Positions 16,240-27,344 are shown, numbered from the stretch's first letter. The stretch: 64,000 bases of DNA from Protoeuglena noctilucae (GCA_958009085.1 OY253669.1:62001-126000); one strand, 5' to 3'. The notes: generated from the sequence alone by a model not told the origin. Numbers and translations are program-made.

Positions 16240-19200
16240 TCACTCCCCCTTCCCCCCCTTCTCCTCCCCCTTCCCCTGCGGTGCCCTCGCCCCACGACCC
16301 TCGCCCCCCTTCCCACGCACGGCACCCCTGCGAGAGACAGACAGGCACACAGCATGTTTTGTGAAATGTCAACGACAACCCTCAGTGCCTCAATGCAATG
16401 GAATTGAACAACAGCAGATGTGCTGAGACGCAAACGTTACCACCACAGCCCACCACTTCGCCCACTATCACCACCACCCCTCACTCCACTCTTACCACCA
16501 TCACTACCACCACCATTCCCCCCTCCCCCACAACACTCGCCTTTTCTTGTTCGTCCCCACCGCCGCCACCACCACCGCAGATACCGCCAGCACATGACCC
16601 CACGCATACACCCTCCCGATGGCCACCCTCGCGCCCTCGAGCGTTAACAACGCGAACGCTGTGCCGCAGTGGGTGTTGAGAGCCTGCCCCAATGCCCAAT
16701 TGGCCACTTGCAGGGCTCTCTTGGTGGGGGGGGGGGCGGACTGGGAAAGGCGATAGAGGGACTGGGGGGAAGAGGGGAGAGGGAGATACGTATATTTGAA
16801 ATAGATATGTTAGTATTGTAATAATACTGTTGATGAGAGCAAACGATGCCCTGCCTTGCCACAAATACAAACACAAACAAGGGTTGCGACTGTGTATTGA
16901 CACCGACACTGCGCCCGTCCCGTCAGGTCCCCGGTTCGACCCTCACCTTCCCCGCGTGCAGGTAAAGGATCGATGACAGGAACATGACGAGGTATCCCAC
17001 GTCCAGTCCGTGCCATATCAGGCTGACCACTTGCGCAGCTGCCAGGCTCAGGAAGGTGGGGCGGCCGTCATGGCTTAGCCACACGCGGTCGTAGACGTAG
17101 TGGCGGAGCCAGGCGCCGGTCTGAATGTTCTGAATGTGGATAGAAGTGGGGAGGGGGTGGGTGAGTGGGTGAGTGAGAGTGAGTGGGGGTGGGTGAGTGG
17201 GAGTGGGTGGGGTAGTGAGGAGTGGGTGGGTGGGGGTGTGGGTAAGGGGTGCAGATGGCAGGGATGAAGGGCGGGCGAAGCAACAGAATCGATCCTCTCT
17301 CATCCCTATTTACAATCATCGTCACCCCCCTGCTACCCTCCACCCCTCACCCAGTTAGCAGCGATGGTGTTGGGGCTGCTGGCCAGCAGGACCACAGACA
17401 AAGGGCGCACGTTCTCAAAGGCATCCCTGCGATGGTGAGAGGGAAAGATGATTAAATGGTGGAGTCACACGTTTGCATGGACATACATGCAACTGCATCA
17501 GTCGCAAATGCCACTCTCGCACTCATGCAAGCACTTGCACACCTCTATGAACCCCATCACCCCCTTCTTAGTATCCATCACTCACCAGTACAACCCCCTC
17601 TCGTTGCCACGCACGCACCAGCACACCCAGTGCACTACCTCTCTCTATCCAACACTCACCAGTACACTCCCCTCTCTATTAATCCCAATCACTCACCAGT
17701 ACACCCCCCCCTCCCTCTCCGTTTTGGATATCCCCGCCGCCGCCATCCCCGCCTCGGCCCACGACCACACGCAAAAGTACTTGGGGCACGTGCCCAGGTA
17801 CATGGCATGCGGGGGAAGATGGGCAGAGCACGATCGATGATTGCATGGAGAGATAGATAGCACGATCACGACAGGATGGAGAAAACAACAGCACGATTGC
17901 AAGACGCCCACACACGGCCGCCGTGACTTGACAGCCCCCAACCCACCCCAATCTCCCACATACACAACAACCCCTCTTCTCTCACCCCCGCCATGTACAG
18001 CTGCCTCTGCCAGAAACTCCACTCCGCGAACCGCTCCGTCAGCACCAGGTGCGGGTTGAAGCTGAGCCACGCCCACGTGGGCGGCAACGTGCGATAGGCC
18101 ACCTTGCACGCCACCTGCAGCCCCGCCCACACGCACCCCTGGGCGAACTTGGCGCCCACGCGCCCCCACTGCGACTCGCGGCGCACCTCCACGGCTGGGG
18201 GGGTGAGGAGTGGTGGGGTGGGAATGATGGAGTGAGAGTGGGAATTGCTGTGGCGGCTGACTCTCACCAGTCCCCTTGTCGCCACCCTCACATCTTCACT
18301 CATAACACCCGCATTGCCATCCTCTCACCCACCCCACCCTCAAACCCACAACAACACCCCCACCCACACACCCGCATGCCACTCCTGACACACCCCCACC
18401 CCACCCCCAACACCCCCACTTCACAACACCCACAACACCCTCACCTGTCCTCTTGTCGTCCCACACCCCCTCCCCCCTGCAGTAGTCGAGGTAGCTCCTG
18501 ATCTCGGCACACGGCCCCGCGAGGTTGTTATTCACCATGGTGCAGTACCCCAGCATCTCCAGAAAGGTGGGGGGAGCGGGGATGGCGCGTGCGTGGCGCT
18601 TGCCGGAACGATAGTCGGCGTAGTTGGCGGCCATGGAGATGACCTTAAGGACCATGACTGGGTTAGAGATGGATGAATGGTCAGGTTGTCAGCTATGTTG
18701 ATTGCCGATATGGGTGGAACATGTGACTGCTGTAGTGAGCGTAGTCGGCATCAACCGTAGTTGGCATCGACATGCGTGACATGGGTTGTGACATGCGTCG
18801 TCCACATGCACTCACCCATGATGACGGCCGAATGGTCGTGCTGCCCGGCGCGGAATTGGATCTGATTGGAGTGCAGGGTGTGTCTGCGAGGGTGCACGGG
18901 GGGTGCAGAGGGTGGGCGAGGCTAAGTGACAGATGCTGTGGGCGAACCACGTGCTGCGTGCTGTGAACTTGGCTGCATGTGTCGGATACCGACCCTCGCT
19001 CATTGCGCATGCGTGTGATGCATCTCATGACCACACTCAGTCATGGGCTGTGCTAGTTCTTGCATGCTCTGCCATGCACGCCAACATCCCACATCAGGGA
19101 CTCACATGATGAGGTAGCCGAAGTTGGTGAGCCACGCCACGAGGACACAGTGATCGGGGACGTAGAGCATCGAGAGCCACGTCAGGATGGCTGCGGGAAG

Positions 19201-19715
19201 AGAGGGGGAGAGGGGGAACGAAGTCGCAGGCGTCACGGATGTCCGGCTACTCGCGCGCGCGATGGAATAGTGTAATGCTTAATTAGCTGCTACAACAAAA
19301 TCGAGGAGGCGGAAACGCGCAGGCCGCTCGCCTGGGACGTAGGTGACGAAGGCGGGGGCACCAAAGAGCGTGAAGATCATCGCGGCGCCGACGAGCGTCG
19401 AGTAGGCGTGGCGCGCTGCGTGCAGGTGTAGGAAGCGAATCGCCTCGCGGTTGCGGCGGGAATGGCGCGGGTGGTCCCGTCTGAAAGAGGCACGTGTGTT
19501 TTGAAGCGTCCCGGCCGCTCACCCGTGCCCCGGGGACACCGGCTCCACAGGTATCCCAGCGGGATGCCCGCAGCGAGGAAGGCGACGTACTTCACCTCCG
19601 ACTGCGAGAGCCCGATGAGCCCATTGAGGGCCGGGATGTCGACGCCCGCCAGCGACACGGAGATCGCCGGGGCAGCGGGCGAGGAGACCCCGCCGATGGG
19701 AGCGGAATGGACCAT
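16240..19715 (-). CDS. MBOAT-family lysophospholipid acyltransferase (LPLAT/LPCAT-like)
   Basis: Hydrophobic exons; MVLKVISMAANYADY; PTFLEMLGY...AGP; KYFCVWSWAE; W|NIQTGAWLRHYVYDR; SLIWHGLDVGY (catalytic His); Lys-rich C-terminus ...EKGGKGE*. Confidence 0.9.
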
Positions 19716-20399
19716 CGGAACCGGTGGCGAAGATTTGGGGAGCGTCGGCCCTCGGTGCGCGCGGCGAGGAGGCCCACGCAGGTGCCCGAGCGTGGCTCGG
19801 AAAGCGGTGCGGCCCAAGCTCCGATCTCCGCGTCGCGACCTTCGACGGGCCCGTGGATCGAAAAGCGTCGCGACGCGGCCACCCCGCTCTCAGGCGCGTC
19901 CTCCTTTGCACGGCGCAAGGGCGGGCGCGAAGTTCAACGCCTGGCTGATTGTCCCAGCGGACTGCGTAGACGCCAGACAGACTGGTGATGGACGCGTGCA
20001 GATGGGAACGAGTCAATGGCGAACCGCTTTCGCAACGCGGGTGCAGAGGCAGAGATGCTGGCGCTCGCTGCCAGTCTAGGGCTTCGATTCAATTCTAAGA
20101 CCCGGTCGACCCCCTTGCGGTGCCCTATTCCTCCACTGGCGCAATAAAAGCATCGACACGCGTGCAAAGGGGTCACATAGACAACGGGCGGCCCGCTTTC
20201 GCGCAGGTATGATGGACAACGATGCTGGTGCTTACTGCTGCGCCAGCCCGTGTGTGATGAAACCTCGTATGTGGTATTCATCTGAATTGCCAATAGTCCA
20301 GATATGTCCAGATATGCGCCTGCCAGAAACACCGTCACTCCCACACCCCATAGGAAACCAGCCTGCGTGGGCAGGATAACACGCTGGTTTGCATGAAAT

Positions 20400-20860
20400 T
20401 GCCACGCACAAATCATGCTACTCAGTGTGCAACTCGCATGCAGTTTGCGCTCGGCCATGCTACTGCAATTGGACCAAAGACACCTTAGGAGCACCAAACT
20501 CACCAGACAGAGCAGTAAGACACCGAACATCATGGCGTCCCACCTGTATTGCCACAGCCACGAGCACCGCCTGCATTCGTAGCCCCCGCGCGTGTTGACG
20601 CAGCAGTCGTTCCCGCGGATGCCCGGCTGCTCCCTGCACTCGTCGATGTCCAGGCACGTGAACCCCTCGCCCCGCCTGTCACACGACGCCCTCCCCCGCA
20701 CAGCCCCGCCAGGCACTGACATTCGTACCCCCCCTCCGTGTTCCTGCAGCACCGTCCCCCGCACGCGCCCGCCGTCACCCTGCAGTCGTCCACGTCCGCG
20801 CACTTGCCACCCACCAGCTCAAACCCCGCGACGTGACGGAGTACGGCGGTGAGACCGGTG
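20400..20860 (-). pseudogene. Partial duplicate of the EGF-TM module of the neighbouring receptor gene (frameshifted; boundaries approximate)
   Basis: GFELVGGKCADVDDC...YECQC, then a frame change near 20695, then ...FTCLDIDECREQPGIRGNDCCVNTRGGYECRRCSWLW followed by a TM segment (MMFGVLLLCLVSLVLL). 20551-20609 is identical to 22298-22356. One EGF Cys is replaced by Arg. Confidence 0.55.
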
Positions 20861-21073
20861 CTGTTGTGTAACTGTGACCGTGCTGGGGCATCCCTCGACT
20901 CGCCCAGCGCAGGCAGGGATCGGCAAGGATGGGGATCTCATGTCTTTGGGTGTGGCCAACACGGTCTGGGCTGGACTGGTCTCTGCCTCATCCCAAAGCA
21001 CCGTTCGGCAAGCGGGCCACCAAAAATTCTTCAGCACAAGCGCGACAACGCGGTGACGCTTTGAGTAGACTCC

Positions 21074-24000
21074 TCAGCATCTCCACAGCTTGACCGTCTC
21101 GTCATCGGACCCGCTCGCCACCCACCGCCCGTCGGGGGAGAACGCCACCGAGTTCACCCCATACGAGTGCCCGGACAGCGTGCGCACGACCTCCCCCGTC
21201 GCCGCGTTCCACAGCTTGACCGTCTCGTCATCGGACCCGCTCGCCACCCACCGCCCGTCGGGGGAGAACGCCACCGAGCGCACCCAGCCCGAGTGCCCGG
21301 ACAGCGTGCGCACGACCTCCCCCGTCGCCGCGTTCCACAGCTTGACCGTCTCGTCATCGGACCCGCTCGCCACCCACCGCCCGTCGGGGGAGAACGCCAC
21401 CGAGTTCACCCAGCCCGAGTGCCCGGACAGCGTGCGCACGACCTCCCCCGTCGCCGCGTCCCACAGCTTGACCGTCTTGTCACCGGACCCGCTCGCCACC
21501 CACCGCCCGTCGGGGGAGAACGCCACCGAGCGCACCCCATACGAGTGCCCGGACAGCGTGCGCACGACCTCCCCCGTCGCCGCGTTCCACAGCTTGACCG
21601 TCTCGTCATCGGACCCGCTCGCCACCCACCGCCCGTCGGGGGAGAACGCCACCGAGTTCACCCAGCCCGAGTGCCCGGACAGCGTGCGCACGACCTCCCC
21701 CGTCGCCGCGTCCCACAGCTTGACCGTCTTGTCACTGGACCCGCTCGCCACCCACCGCCCGTCGGGGGAGAAGGCCACCGACTTCACCCAATACGAGTGC
21801 CCGGACAGCGTCCGTGGCACGAGACCTTTCTGCAGGACGACCCCGAGAGACATACAGGTTCCCGCGCTTTTAGCCTTTTAGACGCGCTCGTCTGGCACAT
21901 GATGACTGCAATGCACGCACGCATCGCAAACTCCCATGACCATCCCATGGGCTGCTGTTCATGGTTCACATGAGTAGGCCACTCAGCCGCATCTAGCCAC
22001 TCCCCTCACTCACCATCACCATGCTCCACGTCGCCACACCAGCAGCAACTGCACCAACGGCAACGACCGCCACCACCTGTGTGCGAGTTTGGTGATTCGC
22101 AGTGGTGTGACGGCATGACACCCTCCCCTCACCAAGGACACTCGGGGCTTGCGGACCATTGAGAAGCTCTGAACAGGCAGCTGCGGCACCCATGCCAGCG
22201 CTCCTACTCGCGCTGCCACAAGCACGCATGGATGCCGTAACGGGAGCCATGGAGGGCCGACTCACCGGGAACATCCAGCCCATTTGCAAGAGCCCACGCC
22301 ACAGCCACGAGCACCGCCTGCATTCGTAGCCCCCGCGCGTGTTGACGCAGCAGTCGCCGTCCCCGCAGATGTCTGACTGCTCCCTGCACTCGTCGACGTC
22401 CAGGCACGACGCCTGGCCCCACGACTGCCCCAGCCGGTAACCGGCCATGCACTTGCACGTGTAGCTGCCAGCCGTGTTGCTGCATGTCCCGCCATCCCCA
22501 CACGCATGGCTCCCGTCGGCACACTCGTCGATGTCCACGCACTGCTCGCCGTCGAACGCGTACCCCGCCTTGCACTTGCACGTGTAACCCTTCTCGCCCT
22601 GCCTCTGGCACTCGCCCAGAGCCCCACATTGCTTCGGGTCACACGTGCACGTGTAGCTCCCAGGCGTGTTCCTGCACACGCCTGCAGGGCCGCACGCCTG
22701 GGGGTCCAGGCACTCGTTGACGTCCACGCAACGCCCCTGAGCGTGCCGGAAGCCCTCCCGGCACCGACACTCGTATCCCCCCTGCTTGTTCACGCACGTG
22801 ACATCCCCCGCACCGCATATCCCCGGCTGCTCCCGGCACTCGTCGATGTCGACGCACGTACCTCTTGACGGCTTGTACCCAGCGGGGCAGACACACGTGA
22901 AGCTCCCCGGCAGGTTCTGGCACGTCCCCAGAGGACCACACTGGTCCAACCCCAGCTTGCACTCGTCCACGTCGACGCACTTCCCGTCCGCCAGCGTGTA
23001 CCCCTTGCCGCAGCCCACGTACGTGTTCCACGCCGCGACGACCGGCTGGATCGTGGCCACAGACAGGTAGCCCGTGCGGGAGGCTGCGGGCTCAGGATGG
23101 GCTGGCAGACGTTCGCGACGGTGATGAGCGAGGCATCACATGGCCTGCCTGTGTGGACTTGTGTCGCCATGCCACGGACCTAGGGCCCAGGCGAGGAGCA
23201 GTGGGACGACGGCCAGCGCGACGACCACGAGGCGATTGCCGAGGGCGAGAGAGACTCGCGAGAGCACGCGGCCCACCTGCAGGGTGGAAGCGGGGTAGGG
23301 TCAGTTGCAACACGCTCACAGCAGGTGCCAATTCATTGCAAAGCGACGTCTCGTGTGCTTGCCTGGGCATCCGCTGCAACATGCCTCTCCTCCTCCGCCC
23401 CAGCTCTCGGCTGCTCGCCCCTCACCGGCACCGCCGGCGCGTCCCCCACCCACTCCCCCAGCAGAGGGTCCGCCCTCAGCGCCTCCCACACCGCCCGCCG
23501 CTCCCCCTCCGCCACCTCCCGCACCAGATACTCCGCCACGCGCTCCTGCGCCCACCGCCGCTTGCCCTGCTCGAACAGCTCGATCGACGCAAAGACGTTC
23601 CCCGGCCGCAGGCTCCTCGCGCAGCCCCGCACGTGGCCATGCACCTCAGCGTGCGGAAACACCCCGAAGCACCACCCGCAGATCTCCGCCCCGCACCCCT
23701 GCCGGTCGCTGCACTTGAGGGCCAGGCACTCGCCCTCGCTCTCCCGCTCCACAAACGCCCGCCCGCACCGCCCGCACTTGGGCGTCACCGCCTCCGCCAC
23801 CGCCAGCTTGTGCCGCACGATCCTCTCCTCCCGGCTCCCCGCCCGTGCACGCGCCAGCTCCCCCCGCAGCCGCTCCACCTCCGCCGCCAGCTCCTCCGCC
23901 TCTCGCGCCCGCGCCCCGGCTGCCACGTTCGACATGAACTGCCTCGCGTCCGCGTCCTCCAGCAGTGCCACGATGCCGGCGCTCGCGAACGTACCCCCGC

Positions 24001-25337
24001 ACGCGTGACCCAGCTCGGCGCACGGCACGTTCCCCAGGTGCCTCTTGAACCACCCCGCCGGGTTGTCCGCATGCGCCGCCAGCATCCCGGCCAGGTGCTC
24101 GTCACACAGGTAGTGCACGCCGCTGCCCCCGTTGCACCCCACCGCCCGCTTTCGGGGCACCGGCCCCATGCATGTCCCACACTCCACCTCGCCCCGCGTC
24201 GTGTCCGCGGCTTCCAGCACACGCCTGCGGCACAGGTGGGAAGCTAGGTACGTCAGCATCACGCTCCTTCATCCTGACTACCCACTGCCCTCAGCCGTCC
24301 CCACAGCCCCGCCCCTCGCCTGCACTCCTTCGCCGCCGCCAGCATGTCCGCCACGCTTGCGCGCCGTGCGGGGTCCTTCTCCAGCGCCCGCAGCGCCGCC
24401 GACCGCAGCGGCTCCGGTACGAACTCTGGTATCGCCGGTTTAGCCCCATCCACGCACACCGCGAACACGACCTGCGCCATCCTCTGCCCCGCGAATGGCT
24501 CCTGCCCCGTCGCGAGGTGCGACAGCGTTGCCGCCGCCGAGTACGCGTCCGACAGGGGCGTGATCTCCTTCTTCGCGTCGTACTGCTCGGGACTCATGTA
24601 CCCAAACGTGCCCCACGCTTCCTGGCGCAAGGTCACCCGGCTGTGGCGCTGCGTGCACAGGGCCGTAACGCATGGCATCGCCGGCTTGTCATGGACGCAA
24701 GCAACGTGCCCCGCCGCCAGCAATTAGCGCCCTCACCCCCATGGACGCCCGCTCCTGCGATATCTTGGCCAGGCCGAAGTCCCCCAGCAGCACCGTGCCA
24801 CGCCGGTCCAGCAGCAGGTTGTGCGGCTTGACGTCGCAGTGCACCAGCCCCGCGCGGTGCAGGTGCGCCAGCCCCTCCAGCATCTGCTCTGCCACGTCCA
24901 CCAGCTCCCCGACCGGCAGCCCCGTCCCCAGCTCCCGCACCCGCCGCGCCAGCGACCCGCGCTCGGCCAGGGGCATCACCAGGTGCAGCGCGCCGTCGAT
25001 GATCGACGTCCCCAGCACCCTGCGGACGCCAGGGAATACCACGTGATCCCCGCAATGCCAGCCACTCCAATGCGCCCCCGCCCCAGCTGCGGCATGCATC
25101 TCACCGGCACACGTGGGCGTTGTTCATCGCTGCCTGGGCCAGCCGCTGCACCTCCTTCGCCGCCCGCTCGTTTGCCCCCGCCTCCGCCCCGTCCGTCAGC
25201 CGCTTAACTGCGACATCCTGCCCCCGCCACAGGCCCCGCCACACCTCGCCCTGGTTGCCCTCCCCGGCCCCCAGAACCTCCCCCAGCACTATCTCGCGTG
25301 CTGGAATAGCCGGAATCTTCAACGCCCCGAACTCCAT
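21074..25337 (-). CDS. Multidomain two-pass membrane protein, ~1125 aa: Ser/Thr kinase (non-RD) - RING - Rcat/IBR-like - TM - cbEGF x5-6 - TM - WD40 x6
   Basis: Exons 25337-25105, 25019-24737, 24648-24320, 24224-23426, 23276-23180, 23083-22266, 22076-22014, 21829-21074 total 3378 nt. All 7 introns have GT/GC...AG ends and keep the frame. Motifs: VAVK, HCDVKPHN, DFG, GTFGYMSPE; CGTC...C...HYLC...C...C; CGRC...GECLALKC...C...CGWC...H..HV..C; LVVVALAVVPLLLAWAL; D[VI][DN]EC repeats; VVAVVAVGAVAAGVATW; GH...W[DN] repeats. Confidence 0.75.
21080..21815 (-). repeat. Six near-identical 126-bp tandem units encoding 42-aa WD40 repeats
   Basis: Unit RTLSGHSxxVxSVAFSPDGRWVASGSxDxTVKLWxAATGEVV, repeated at near nucleotide identity. 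Confidence 0.97.
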
Positions 25338-26126
25338 CGGGCCGCCACGCGCCGCGCGCGTCCGAGATGCCGGCGTACGGCCAAGCACACTCTGCGGACG
25401 CCTGCGTCGCGCTGCGGGGGCGCGGCACAGTGGCATGCGAGTCACACGACACGCATTGATCCCGTCTGCGCGATACAAGCCGCACGCAGCCCTCCCGGGC
25501 GCGCTTCGCCATCGTGCTCTCCCGCCGTGATCATACGCCTCCAGCCCCTTTCTTCGGCGGCATGCTGCTTCTGCTGCATGACGCAGTCCATGTACTCCTT
25601 TGAGACTGGCAAACCTCCCCGATCGTCCTCCGCAGCTCACCTGAAGCGGCCTTTCGTGGTGGGCAGTGTTCACGATGCTACCTCACACAGCAGAGGCTTT
25701 TTGCACTTTCGTTCGTGCAGAACCACTGCAGGTCCATTAAAGTGGTCGTGCGGGGGGTTAGGGGCGACGAGTCAGGCCCTGCGTGACTTCGTCGGCCCTG
25801 GGTGCCAGAGATGCACAAGAGAACGTGGCTCGGCGCTCCATCGATAATACATTAAAGAGTGGCCATGATTTTGCGGAAGTCGGTTGGAAACGAGCTGGGC
25901 ATGGGGCCGCCCGGCTCTGCAGGCTGACTGACTCCAAAGCAACAATATTTCCCACAAAGACCGATTGTATTGTGGCACTGTGCGCTCAATTATGTGCATT
26001 TCAACAAGCTTCAACAAGCCTGGAGTAAAACGCGACCTGCTTTCTTAAAACATTCGCGCAGGTACGATAGACAACGTTGCTGGTGCTGGCTGCTGGACAG
26101 GCGCAAACTAAAACGCGTCTTCCCAT

Positions 26127-27344
26127 TCACTTCCTGAAGGGATTGGCATTCTCGAGGAGCGACACGTCCCACAGCTTCCTGCAACGCACAGCAGCGAATC
26201 CAGCGTGTTGTTCCCAAGCAACGGTCGCCTTTCCAACACCCCTCGCCCCCGACCCCCCACCTGGCGTCCAGTCGAGACCTCCTAATAAATTCCTGGTATT
26301 TCCTTTGCATGTCCGCCCGGTCCGCCGAGCTCCACACCTCCACCTCCACCTCTTCGCCCTGACCCGCCCCCTCCGCGCCCTCCCGGTCCCCCGCACTCTC
26401 GTCCCCCGACTCCTCCTCCGCGCTCCACGCCCGCGCACGCGCCTTCTCGCTGGAGGACAGCGCCGCCCTCACGCGCGCCTGCAGATTAGTGATACAAGCC
26501 CGCATCGTAAGCATCGTCATTAGCCCTCACTGTTCACAAGACGCACACCTGCCCTCGCGCATCACCCACCCGTTGCTGCTTCATTCTATCTCTCCGCTCC
26601 GCCATCTCCGACTCCTCCTGCACCCGCCGGTCCTCCACCCTCCGCTCCTGCCACTGCGCCTGCAAACAGCCGAGGCAGCATTCGTGCATCGTCTTGCAGA
26701 CGGCCAGCGACAGGACCCCTATTCCAGCAGCAAGAGAGCGAGCTGATGTCGTTGTACTGCCATACACACAGCCTCGTCTCACCAGGGGCCCCAGGACCAG
26801 CAGAAGCGCCGTGAACGCCGCCGCAGCTGCCGCCGGCCACAGCGGCACGTGGCCCGCCCCCGGCATGCGCCGGTGGAGGGCCGCCCTCGCTGGCGGACCG
26901 CTCGCCGGCACCCATAGCACGCTTCCCGGCGACAGGGCGCTCGCGGAGGCCCGGGGATTGAAGCCCGCGATGTCCTGGCGAGAGATGCGGTAGGCCGTCG
27001 CCACGTCGTCGATCGTGTCGCCGATCTGCACGACGTACATGCTGAGAGCACGACGCGATAAGATAAAGAGTTAATGTCGGACGGCGGGCGGGTGGCGAGG
27101 GCCGCAGCGCCGCGCGCGGCGGGCGCACACACACACACCGCAGCGTCCGGTCCGTGCTGGGCCGGGAAGTGGGCTGGAAGTAGACCTGGCCGAAGGAGTA
27201 GGTCGGACTTCCGCTCGTGCTCGCTTCACCGCTCGGTCCCGATCCCCCTCTCGTGGCGGAGATCGGGCGCGGGCCCCTCTGCACGGAACGCGCGACAGGT
27301 GCGCGTGAGATTCGGGCGCCGAGCATCGGAAGGGAGGCGGCCAT
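26127..27344 (-). CDS. LysM-domain membrane protein, probably plastid-targeted
   Basis: Ser/Arg/Ala-rich N-terminus (MAASLPMLGARISRAPVARSVQR); LysM YVVQIGDTIDDVATAYRISRQDIAGFNPRASASALSPGSVLWVP; TM segment; charged tail ending ...YQEFIRRSRLDAR|KLWDVSLLENANPFRK*. Confidence 0.75.

Follow-up and report, generated by a model that had tools for sequence, protein, structure and literature searches.

A probable single-pass membrane protein joining a kinase, an RBR-like module and an EGF array in Protoeuglena noctilucae, and a repeat-bounded WD40 segment bypassed by its transcripts

Four kinds of protein module lie in a row on the minus strand of a 64,000-nt stretch of Protoeuglena noctilucae DNA (GCA_958009085.1 OY253669.1:62001-126000; the window, whose coordinates count from its first letter), and the locus raises the question of whether they are parts of one protein. 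Within this window of 55-71% G+C, stop-to-stop open reading frames (ORFs) on the minus strand divide a protein kinase among three ORFs (25101-25682, 24689-25123 and 24259-24723), accompanied by a Cys-rich ORF (23333-24268, 311 aa), an EGF ORF (21993-23135) and a WD40 ORF (21074-21877). A reading made from the sequence alone (the sequence-only reading) had joined them all through seven introns into one chain with two transmembrane (TM) helices and had proposed an immune or allorecognition receptor. The modules are present as claimed, as judged by the ORFs, a Pfam scan that took in 8 ORFs and a tandem repeat search (TRF), and the seven introns, all of the GT/GC..AG type, leave the frame open over 3378 nt (1125 aa). 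The transcripts support a shorter chain composed of the kinase, an RBR-like module, a TM helix and the EGF array, and those that pass the last EGF domain skip the WD40 array. Kinase, RBR, EGF and WD40 are modules of known kinds, and no paralogues of any of them were found elsewhere in the window outside 19900-25400 (self-matches and hits inside 21000-25400 were filtered).

Transcripts linking the kinase to the EGF array

Transcript evidence was drawn from contigs of four marine metatranscriptome runs of one study, aligned to 21700-26500 at a min_likeness of 90; the alignment left out the interior of the WD40 tandem array and 19000-21699. These transcripts come from environmental samples, other than the sequenced strain, and 12-37% of the sampled words of the region were present in the four runs. 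In four further runs, labelled organism A (library type not stated), the share of sampled words from 21000-25700 that was present was 0.82-0.94. Neither the Cys-rich exon nor 30 nt taken from the 59-bp repeat described below gave a match when used to scan metagenome contigs.

The most economical reading of these data, and in our judgement the probable one, is that kinase, RBR-like module, TM helix and EGF array form one chain, with an RNA-supported product of 874 aa. Two records carry this reading. An RNA contig in which intron 4 (23277-23362) is spliced links ...AADAQ and VGRVLSRV in frame, leading from the Cys-rich exon into the 97-nt hydrophobic TM exon. The protein P0151 (source 'jgi', 302 aa, contig of 1164 nt), found with the EGF ORF as the query at 99% identity in a local alignment, is identical at 302/302 residues to the translated window exons 23267-23180, 23083-22298, 20550-20544 and 20362-20338. 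It starts within the TM exon (VLSRVSLALGN...), spans all six EGF domains and ends ...RRCSWLWQYRLVSYGVWE, and its ORF, in which there is no start codon, extends to the 5' end of the contig. The TM exon, which the sequence-only reading had placed at 23180-23276, is real, being spliced to the RBR-like module in the RNA contig and to the EGF exon in P0151, and the predicted intron 23084-23179 is reproduced exactly in the latter (302/302 residues). For the intron predicted at 23277-23425 the acceptor held and the donor did not, the donor observed being a GC at 23362 (one contig, depth 2.8).

The start codons of the locus bear on the same point. On reading the sequence, we found no in-frame ATG in the TM exon and none in the EGF frame before the fifth EGF domain. 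The ATGs at 23170, 23141 and 23137 were considered as a separate start for the EGF part and rejected, as they are out of frame or stop at once, and the retained intron upstream of the TM exon offers only ATG AAT TGG CAC CTG CTG TGA. With no earlier ATG available and the EGF exon coding, translation of the EGF array therefore has to begin at the kinase ATG and run through the TM exon. The joint 25411/25641 implies that the transcript starts above 25711 and that 25337 is the first ATG after the splice; the 5'UTR exon 25641-25711 was read without finding an ATG that opens a long frame.

Within the kinase part, the joint across the intron predicted at 25020-25104 was seen in the contig of a ~93%-identical relative, and that across 24649-24736 approximately, with 12 other letters. 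Intron 1 is unspliced in exact contigs of X2 and X3, and two RNA contigs begin at 24738 and 24739, beside intron 2. Among the RNA contigs aligned, no spliced read crosses intron 3 (24225-24319). Two further joints, 22582/22831 (side 29) and 24354/24869 (side 25, GC..GC), were taken as repeat or paralogue artefacts. Intron 4 is unspliced in X2 record 9, where its retention leads to a stop at 23333-23335 and a 578-aa product, and intron 5 is unspliced in X1 record 1, where retention leads to a stop after 15 codons (23136) and a tail-anchored product of 615 aa; such truncated products probably exist as well. A study of Emiliania huxleyi (PMC4028052) gives a 65% G+C genome in which GC-AG accounts for 56% of 241 curated junctions and intronic reads occur at 478/535 introns. 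GC donors, retained introns and ~65% G+C are likewise found at the present locus, and its GC donors and intron retention fit a lineage of pervasive intron retention. Taken by themselves, these features and the taxa of the Atlas lookup given below would suggest a haptophyte.

The hydrophobic helix occupies residues 585-601 (Kyte-Doolittle maximum of 2.61 at 585-603) and is the sole TM helix in the supported product, whose N-terminus (MEFGALKIPAIP...) is not hydrophobic. Three Arg residues precede the helix and one K/R follows it. Five D[IV][DN]EC motifs lie after the helix, Pfam EGF_CA matches in 5 stretches (5.9e-48), and the 36 Cys of the ectodomain amount to six per EGF domain, so that the six-Cys fold and the calcium motif of EGF_CA (PF07645) are both predicted. 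The 874-aa product would be a single-pass membrane protein with a cytosolic non-RD kinase at approximately residues 1-270, a cytosolic RBR-like module at ~290-540, the helix at 585-601 as a signal anchor, and an exoplasmic C-terminal part made up of an array of six EGF domains of the calcium-binding type and an 11-residue tail. The placement of kinase and ligase in the cytosol and of the EGF array outside, as the sequence-only reading had it, fits the sequence because of the Arg flanks, and it is the sole arrangement compatible with both the zinc fingers and the folding of EGF domains.

The kinase carries the predicted catalytic motifs VAVK (residue 42), HCD (138-140), KPHN (142), DFG (158) and SPE (191), so that the fold and the catalytic residues of the protein kinase superfamily (Pkinase, PF00069) can both be assigned from its sequence; its PDB matches are generic (GCN2 at 1.5e-14, Chk1, RIPK1). 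It is a non-RD kinase, as claimed, with HCD replacing HRD and thus no Arg before the catalytic Asp. Non-RD kinases are associated with pattern recognition. We can only infer a role in immunity or allorecognition. In such a protein, binding of a ligand or surface by the EGF array may make the cytosolic part cluster differently or adopt another conformation; in response, the kinase might switch an auto-inhibited RBR-type ligase, or mark the substrates of the ligase, which would ubiquitinate targets at the membrane. RBR-type ligases are normally auto-inhibited.

The route past the last EGF domain and the WD40 segment

Past the last EGF domain, the message of P0151 picks up at 20550 rather than 22297, crossing over within a perfect direct repeat of 59 bp (22298-22356 = 20551-20609, 100% identical) that sits in a 111-nt stretch of 92% identity. 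A second record, the RNA contig X1 record 1 (1167 nt), matches 22298-23176 over 879 nt with 0 other letters, and its match ends exactly at 22298. For its other 288 letters no joint is listed within 21700-26500; they would be accounted for if the contig continued like P0151, with 7 + 281 nt ending at ~20082. Both records that pass the last EGF domain thus bypass a 1,747-bp segment that holds the WD40 array and the proposed second TM exon ('TM2'). The message rebuilt along this route terminates ...WLWQYRLVSYGVWE*, with the stop codon at 20335-20337, and its 3' end is placed at ~20080 because the exons from 23267 to 20080 total 1164 nt, the size of the P0151 contig. Among the RNA contigs on 21700-26500, no joint into 22076 or 21829 is listed. 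Over 21861-22182 there is a single 32-nt match, unlike the window beyond both its ends, and gaps in this coverage carry no weight.

These results divide the earlier gene model. Its fusion of kinase, RBR-like module, TM helix and EGF array is supported; its TM2 and WD40 propeller are not part of the chain that we observed, as the transcripts beyond the last EGF domain skip the segment and the G+C content at third codon positions (GC3) of 'TM2' is 0.62. No transcript shows either of the introns 22077-22265 and 21830-22013 on which that part depended, the records exiting at 22298, before both donors. The model also lacked the 5'UTR intron 25412-25640, the 59-bp repeat and the 3' end with intron 20363-20543 and stop 20335-20337. 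We considered 22077-22265 as a coding stalk and rejected it, its GC3 in the EGF frame being 0.40-0.60.

The WD40 array itself looks like a functional array in concerted evolution, as judged from its sequence and a structural model. Its DNA is a 126-nt tandem repeat (TRF; 21082-21811, 5.8 copies, 94% matches), and the GC3 of its exon is 0.94. Units 2-6 vary at six codons (13, 14, 16, 32, 34 and 40), with 6/6 changes nonsynonymous, and synonymous differences are restricted to unit 1. AF2, run on the single sequence, gave a pLDDT of 95.2 and a pTM of 0.90. No RNA joins the WD40 exon to the upstream exons in the contigs aligned, P0151 and X1 record 1 both bypassing it. Eight codons before the WD40 acceptor, at ~21853, the minus strand has an ATG in the WD40 frame (MSLGVVLQ|KGLVPRTL...), from which a stand-alone six-blade protein of 259 aa would be possible.

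For the absence of the segment from these messages we lean towards a presence/absence allele, generated by recombination between the 59-bp repeats. The alternative, to which we give somewhat less credence, is that 20571-22317 is a long GC-AG intron (CAG|GCGGTG ... ATGCAG|G). The last 20 nt of its candidate acceptor contain 40% pyrimidines, versus 60-80% at supported acceptors here, and the poor donors GTCCGT and GTGGGA, both confirmed at this locus, make splicing from a poor site here conceivable. The stretch between the WD40 stop and repeat copy R-A holds remnants of EGF sequence (20610-20830) whose frame shifts by 1 nt at around 20700-20720. They may be left over from an EGF array that was once longer and has partly decayed, or they may belong, as exons, to an isoform not seen here.

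The RBR-like module, its relatives and the rival explanations

The Cys-rich ORF matches no Pfam family, and the IBR and Rcat models fall below threshold. A search with it for longer homologous proteins found none, and a near search returned only the unspliced ORF of the window itself (P0271). An exhaustive HMMER search with the Cys-rich domain yielded 352 representative proteins at E <= 1e-3 (38 at E <= 1e-10); 150 of the 352 were listed, and all counts of motifs, TM helices and WD40 repeats below refer to these 150. The domain match usually lies at the C-terminal end of the relatives. Pfam on 45 of the longer relatives found Pkinase N-terminal to the match in 20, an AAA_11/AAA_12 helicase in 5 (one with ZNFX1 in addition), a sub-threshold IBR_1 in 3 and no family in 17.

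We aligned the window exon with 36 of the 150 relatives, picked for shortness (alignment A1, 37 rows). C150, C153, C166, C171, C177 and C182 are invariant in 37/37 rows, the column of the catalytic Cys included, and W184, C185, H195, H197 and C201 are nearly so. The A1 profile matched parkin (1.1e-6, over the RING1 region and IBR/Rcat), the Cullin-9 Rcat (5.9e-4, 22.7 bits) and the Ariadne-1 RING2 (3.4e-3). Its positions 12-101 align with parkin 92-181 (i-Evalue 1.3e-4), identifying a RING1; in the alignment to the Rcat of Cullin-9 and parkin, the invariant Cys of 'D/E-G-C' falls on the catalytic position, identifying an Rcat with a putative catalytic Cys. The AF2 model of the module (pLDDT 87.8) consists of a small zinc module with short strands and a helix at residues 12-50, a long helical hairpin (helices 90-127 and 131-145), a second zinc module and a helical tail. 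Foldseek gave no match at E <= 1e-3; nearly all its best rows were RBR ligases (RNF216 at 3e-3, then parkin, HOIL-1, HHARI, ARIH2 and HOIP). The profile and fold matches support an RBR-type module and a predicted ubiquitin ligase, in agreement with the sequence-only reading, with one qualification. Between RING1 and Rcat no IBR was found, the model having helices there and A1 a single conserved C-terminal Cys cluster; we therefore call the module RBR-like and do not count it a canonical RBR member. It resembles the RBR E3 ligases parkin, HHARI/ARIH1, RNF216 and Cullin-9 in its RING1-like zinc module and in an Rcat-like module with a conserved catalytic-Cys column, and differs from them in having a helical hairpin in place of the IBR and in its position behind a kinase and before a TM helix.

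Within the family, a hydrophobic helix follows the domain within ~25 residues in 4 of the 150 listed relatives (P0115, as a C-terminal tail anchor, P0032, P0118 and P0077), and WD40 follows it directly in 2. One of the latter, P0033 (845 aa), combines in one ORF a Pkinase domain (36-256), the RBR-like domain (351-595) and WD40 (613-845). In the other, P0009, WD40 (Pfam 1.8e-15) comes after the RBR-like domain. With the EGF block removed, the window is collinear with both. In these predicted proteins a membrane anchor after the module recurs, as does WD40, and EGF is unique to the present locus among the relatives listed. An Atlas lookup with the homologue P0002, which provides leads only, returned clusters without a name, found most often in Haptophyta and Nucleocytoviricota, together with IBR/Rcat_RNF216 clusters scoring 0.88-0.92. 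In P0045, P0050, P0094, P0122 and P0147 the RBR-like module ends long SF1 helicases (AAA_11/AAA_12), P0045 having a ZNFX1 domain as well; as a lead only, antiviral-type sensors may often use this module as their output. P0008 and P0003 carry the Rcat-like half of the module in two tandem copies.

Several observations weigh against a single chain from kinase to EGF array. No one contig spans it; the two contigs concerned share only the 97-nt TM exon, and the joint from the RBR-like module to the TM exon was seen in one contig of depth 2.8 at a min_likeness of 90. Exact contigs that retain introns 1, 4 and 5 are present too, most relatives terminate just after the RBR-like domain, and P0033 and P0009 do have WD40 right after it. 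The D[IV][DN]EC motif was found in 0 of the 150 listed relatives, leaving the EGF fusion without precedent in the family. A difference in contig depth between the kinase and EGF parts was dropped as a sign of separate transcripts, since depth cannot rank gene parts. A rival reading has two products, namely a kinase-RBR-like protein (578 aa to 23333, or tail-anchored with 615 aa to 23136) and a separate EGF protein, secreted or in the membrane, for which the hydrophobic exon would serve as signal peptide. In its favour, exact contigs keep introns 4 and 5, kinase and EGF are linked by no contig, most relatives stop just past the domain, P0115 is tail-anchored, and the hydrophobic exon resembles a signal peptide (...LLLAWA|LA). 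A separate EGF protein would, however, have no in-frame ATG in the hydrophobic exon, in the retained intron upstream or in the EGF frame before the fifth EGF domain, the P0151 ORF is open at the 5' edge of its contig, and the splice from the RBR exon into the hydrophobic exon, seen in one contig, keeps the frame; we consider two products very improbable.

The other alternatives bring the WD40 array into the protein. A strain that keeps the segment in its pre-mRNA could use the strong GTGAGT donors at 22265 and 22013 and so make the product first proposed, in which case the sequenced strain would have kinase, RBR-like module, TM, EGF, TM2 and WD40 in one chain (1125 aa; the GC donor would make it 1146 aa) and the environmental allele would have lost the segment. 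The frame is open across all exons, the acceptor at 21830 resembles confirmed ones, the WD40 exon keeps its high GC3 and an intact array, the organism A runs hold 0.82-0.94 of the sampled words across 21000-25700, and P0033 and P0009 connect the RBR-like domain to WD40. We nevertheless regard this chain as unlikely, given that P0151 and X1 record 1 part from the genomic sequence at the repeat without having reached the 22265 donor, that the GC3 of 'TM2' is low, that the propeller would follow only 6 residues past the membrane helix, and that no listed joint enters 22076 or 21829. A further isoform, compatible with the preferred 874-aa chain, would run from exon 4 directly to the WD40 exon at 21829, skipping TM and EGF to give an 820-aa cytosolic kinase-RBR-like-WD40 protein. 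Its join is in frame, phase 0 to phase 0, and P0033 has the same architecture, with P0009 showing the domain and then WD40, both collinear with the window minus the EGF block. Such an isoform is conceivable but doubtful: no listed joint leads from 23363 or 23426 to 21829, the architecture occurs in only 2 of 150 listed relatives, and it is impossible in an allele without the segment.

Should the 874-aa chain prove real, we would have a receptor-like protein inverted with respect to plant and animal receptor kinases, with both its kinase and its parkin-type ligase facing the cytosol, a design in which one chain could couple sensing at the cell surface directly to ubiquitination. The family to which its RBR-like module belongs is large (352 representative clusters) and has no Pfam model, and its members are often fused to kinases or ZNFX1-like helicases. 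In the repeat-bounded WD40 cassette, a lineage of bloom-forming algae would provide a concrete case of structural variation, or of intron gain, within a gene. A broader idea, which we put forward as a long shot, is that of a modular surface-to-ubiquitin sensor: the WD40 cassette, present in the sequenced strain and missing in the wild population, would toggle the protein between an EGF receptor and a WD40-terminated form, within a kinase-RBR-like family of haptophytes and other protists (with giant-virus look-alike clusters) that swaps its sensors (none, TM anchor, WD40 or EGF) in the manner of innate-immunity or allorecognition receptors.

Known systems and the features of the locus

Plant wall-associated kinases (WAKs) combine an EGF ectodomain, a TM segment and a kinase. 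Like them, the window protein has an outer part of calcium-binding EGF repeats, a single TM helix and an inner kinase of the Ser/Thr type; unlike them, it has the order reversed, with the kinase N-terminal and the ectodomain C-terminal, no signal peptide and an added E3 module. The order of type I receptor kinases, such as WAK-like receptor-like kinases or animal receptor tyrosine kinases (signal peptide and ectodomain, TM, C-terminal kinase), is thus not that of the window protein. Bacterial PknB-type PASTA kinases have an N-terminal cytosolic kinase, one TM helix and a C-terminal extracellular repeat array. They have the same orientation as the window gene, which differs in being eukaryotic with introns, in having EGF and not PASTA repeats, and in its extra RBR-like module. 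In the MEGF8-MGRN1 receptor-like E3 complex (10.1101/2020.05.25.113944), an EGF-bearing single-pass membrane protein is reported to be coupled to a cytosolic RING-superfamily ligase that works at the membrane; there the parts are two proteins, whereas here a single chain would unite them, its ligase being RBR-like and accompanied by a kinase.

The WD40 arrays of fungal HET-E/HNWD proteins consist of near-identical 42-aa units that differ at few codons. The units in the window are similar, but only six in number and outside the transcripts seen, and no NACHT, NB-ARC or HET domain, as expected of a HET-E/NWD-type NLR, was matched by Pfam in the 8 ORFs scanned. We found no description of the present architecture in open-access papers and preprints. 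What appears new is the type-II-oriented receptor-like chain with a kinase and an RBR-like ligase, the size of the unannotated family and the repeat-bounded WD40 cassette. The features of the locus are collected in Table 1.

Table 1 Features of the kinase-RBR-like-EGF locus and of the WD40 segment, in the order of the minus strand
Feature	Positions	Strand	Evidence
5'UTR exon, 5' end undefined	25641-25711	-	Exact RNA contig X4 record 28, joined to 25411
5'UTR intron, 229 nt, GT-AG	25412-25640	-	Joint 25411/25641, + strand CT..AC, 0 other letters
CDS exon 1, kinase N-lobe (Gly loop, VAVK), start ATG 25337	25105-25337	-	Pfam PK_Tyr_Ser-Thr 0.0019
Intron 1, 85 nt, GT-AG	25020-25104	-	Joint in X1 record 6, ~93%-identical relative, 15 and 13 other letters
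CDS exon 2, kinase catalytic loop HCD and DFG	24737-25019	-	Pfam Pkinase 8.4e-19
Intron 2, 88 nt, GT-AG	24649-24736	-	Approximate: joint 24638/24739, 12 other letters, same ~93%-identical relative
CDS exon 3, kinase C-lobe	24320-24648	-	Pkinase 1.6e-07, 31.4 bits (cut-off 31.7); PK_Tyr_Ser-Thr 9e-06, 25.6 bits (cut-off 23.1)
Intron 3, 95 nt, GC-AG, predicted	24225-24319	-	Frame kept; X4 record 27, an exact contig, stops at 24320
CDS exon 4, RBR-like module (RING1, helical hairpin, Rcat with putative catalytic Cys)	23363-24224	-	Profile and fold; no Pfam match
Intron 4, 86 nt, GC-AG	23277-23362	-	X1 joint 23275/23362, slide up to 4, side 74, depth 2.8
CDS exon 5, single predicted TM helix (signal anchor), 97 nt, no ATG	23180-23276	-	Hydropathy; GC3 0.84; P0151 begins inside
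Intron 5, 96 nt, GT-AG, donor GTCCGT	23084-23179	-	P0151 reads ...LLLAWALASRTGY... across the junction
CDS exon 6, six cbEGF-like domains, ending in the 59 nt of repeat copy R-B (22298-22356)	22298-23083	-	EGF_CA 5.9e-48; GC3 0.87
Segment missing from transcripts, 1,747 bp	20551-22297	-	P0151 match; X1 record 1; cut slides within the 59-bp repeat
'TM2' exon of the sequence-only reading, unsupported	22014-22076	-	GC3 0.62 over 21 codons versus 0.84-0.97 in the other exons
WD40 exon/ORF, six near-identical 42-aa repeats, stop 21074-21076	21074-21829	-	WD40 6.9e-94, 6 stretches
EGF remnants, ~2.3 units, two frames	20610-20830	-	ORFs 20530-20937 and 19934-20818; GC3 0.87-1.0; EGF_CA 1.9e-05, below cut-off
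Repeat copy R-A (20551-20609) and 7-nt exon (..QY R)	20544-20609	-	Repeat search; P0151
Last intron, 181 nt, GT-AG, donor GTGGGA	20363-20543	-	P0151 tail ...QYRLVSYGVWE needs its removal
Last exon: 8 codons, stop 20335-20337, 3'UTR to ~20080	20080-20362	-	P0151; 3' end inferred

Upstream lies a further minus-strand gene, covered by exact RNA contigs over 25994-26181. Its 3' part (26053-26095) and the 3'UTR of the gene described here (20198-20240) contain a 43-nt direct repeat, 88% identical, which may be a shared 3'-end element. In this neighbour (25994-26526), an RNA contig shows a spliced intron of ~82 nt (26178/26179-26259/26260), with 0 other letters on the piece listed.

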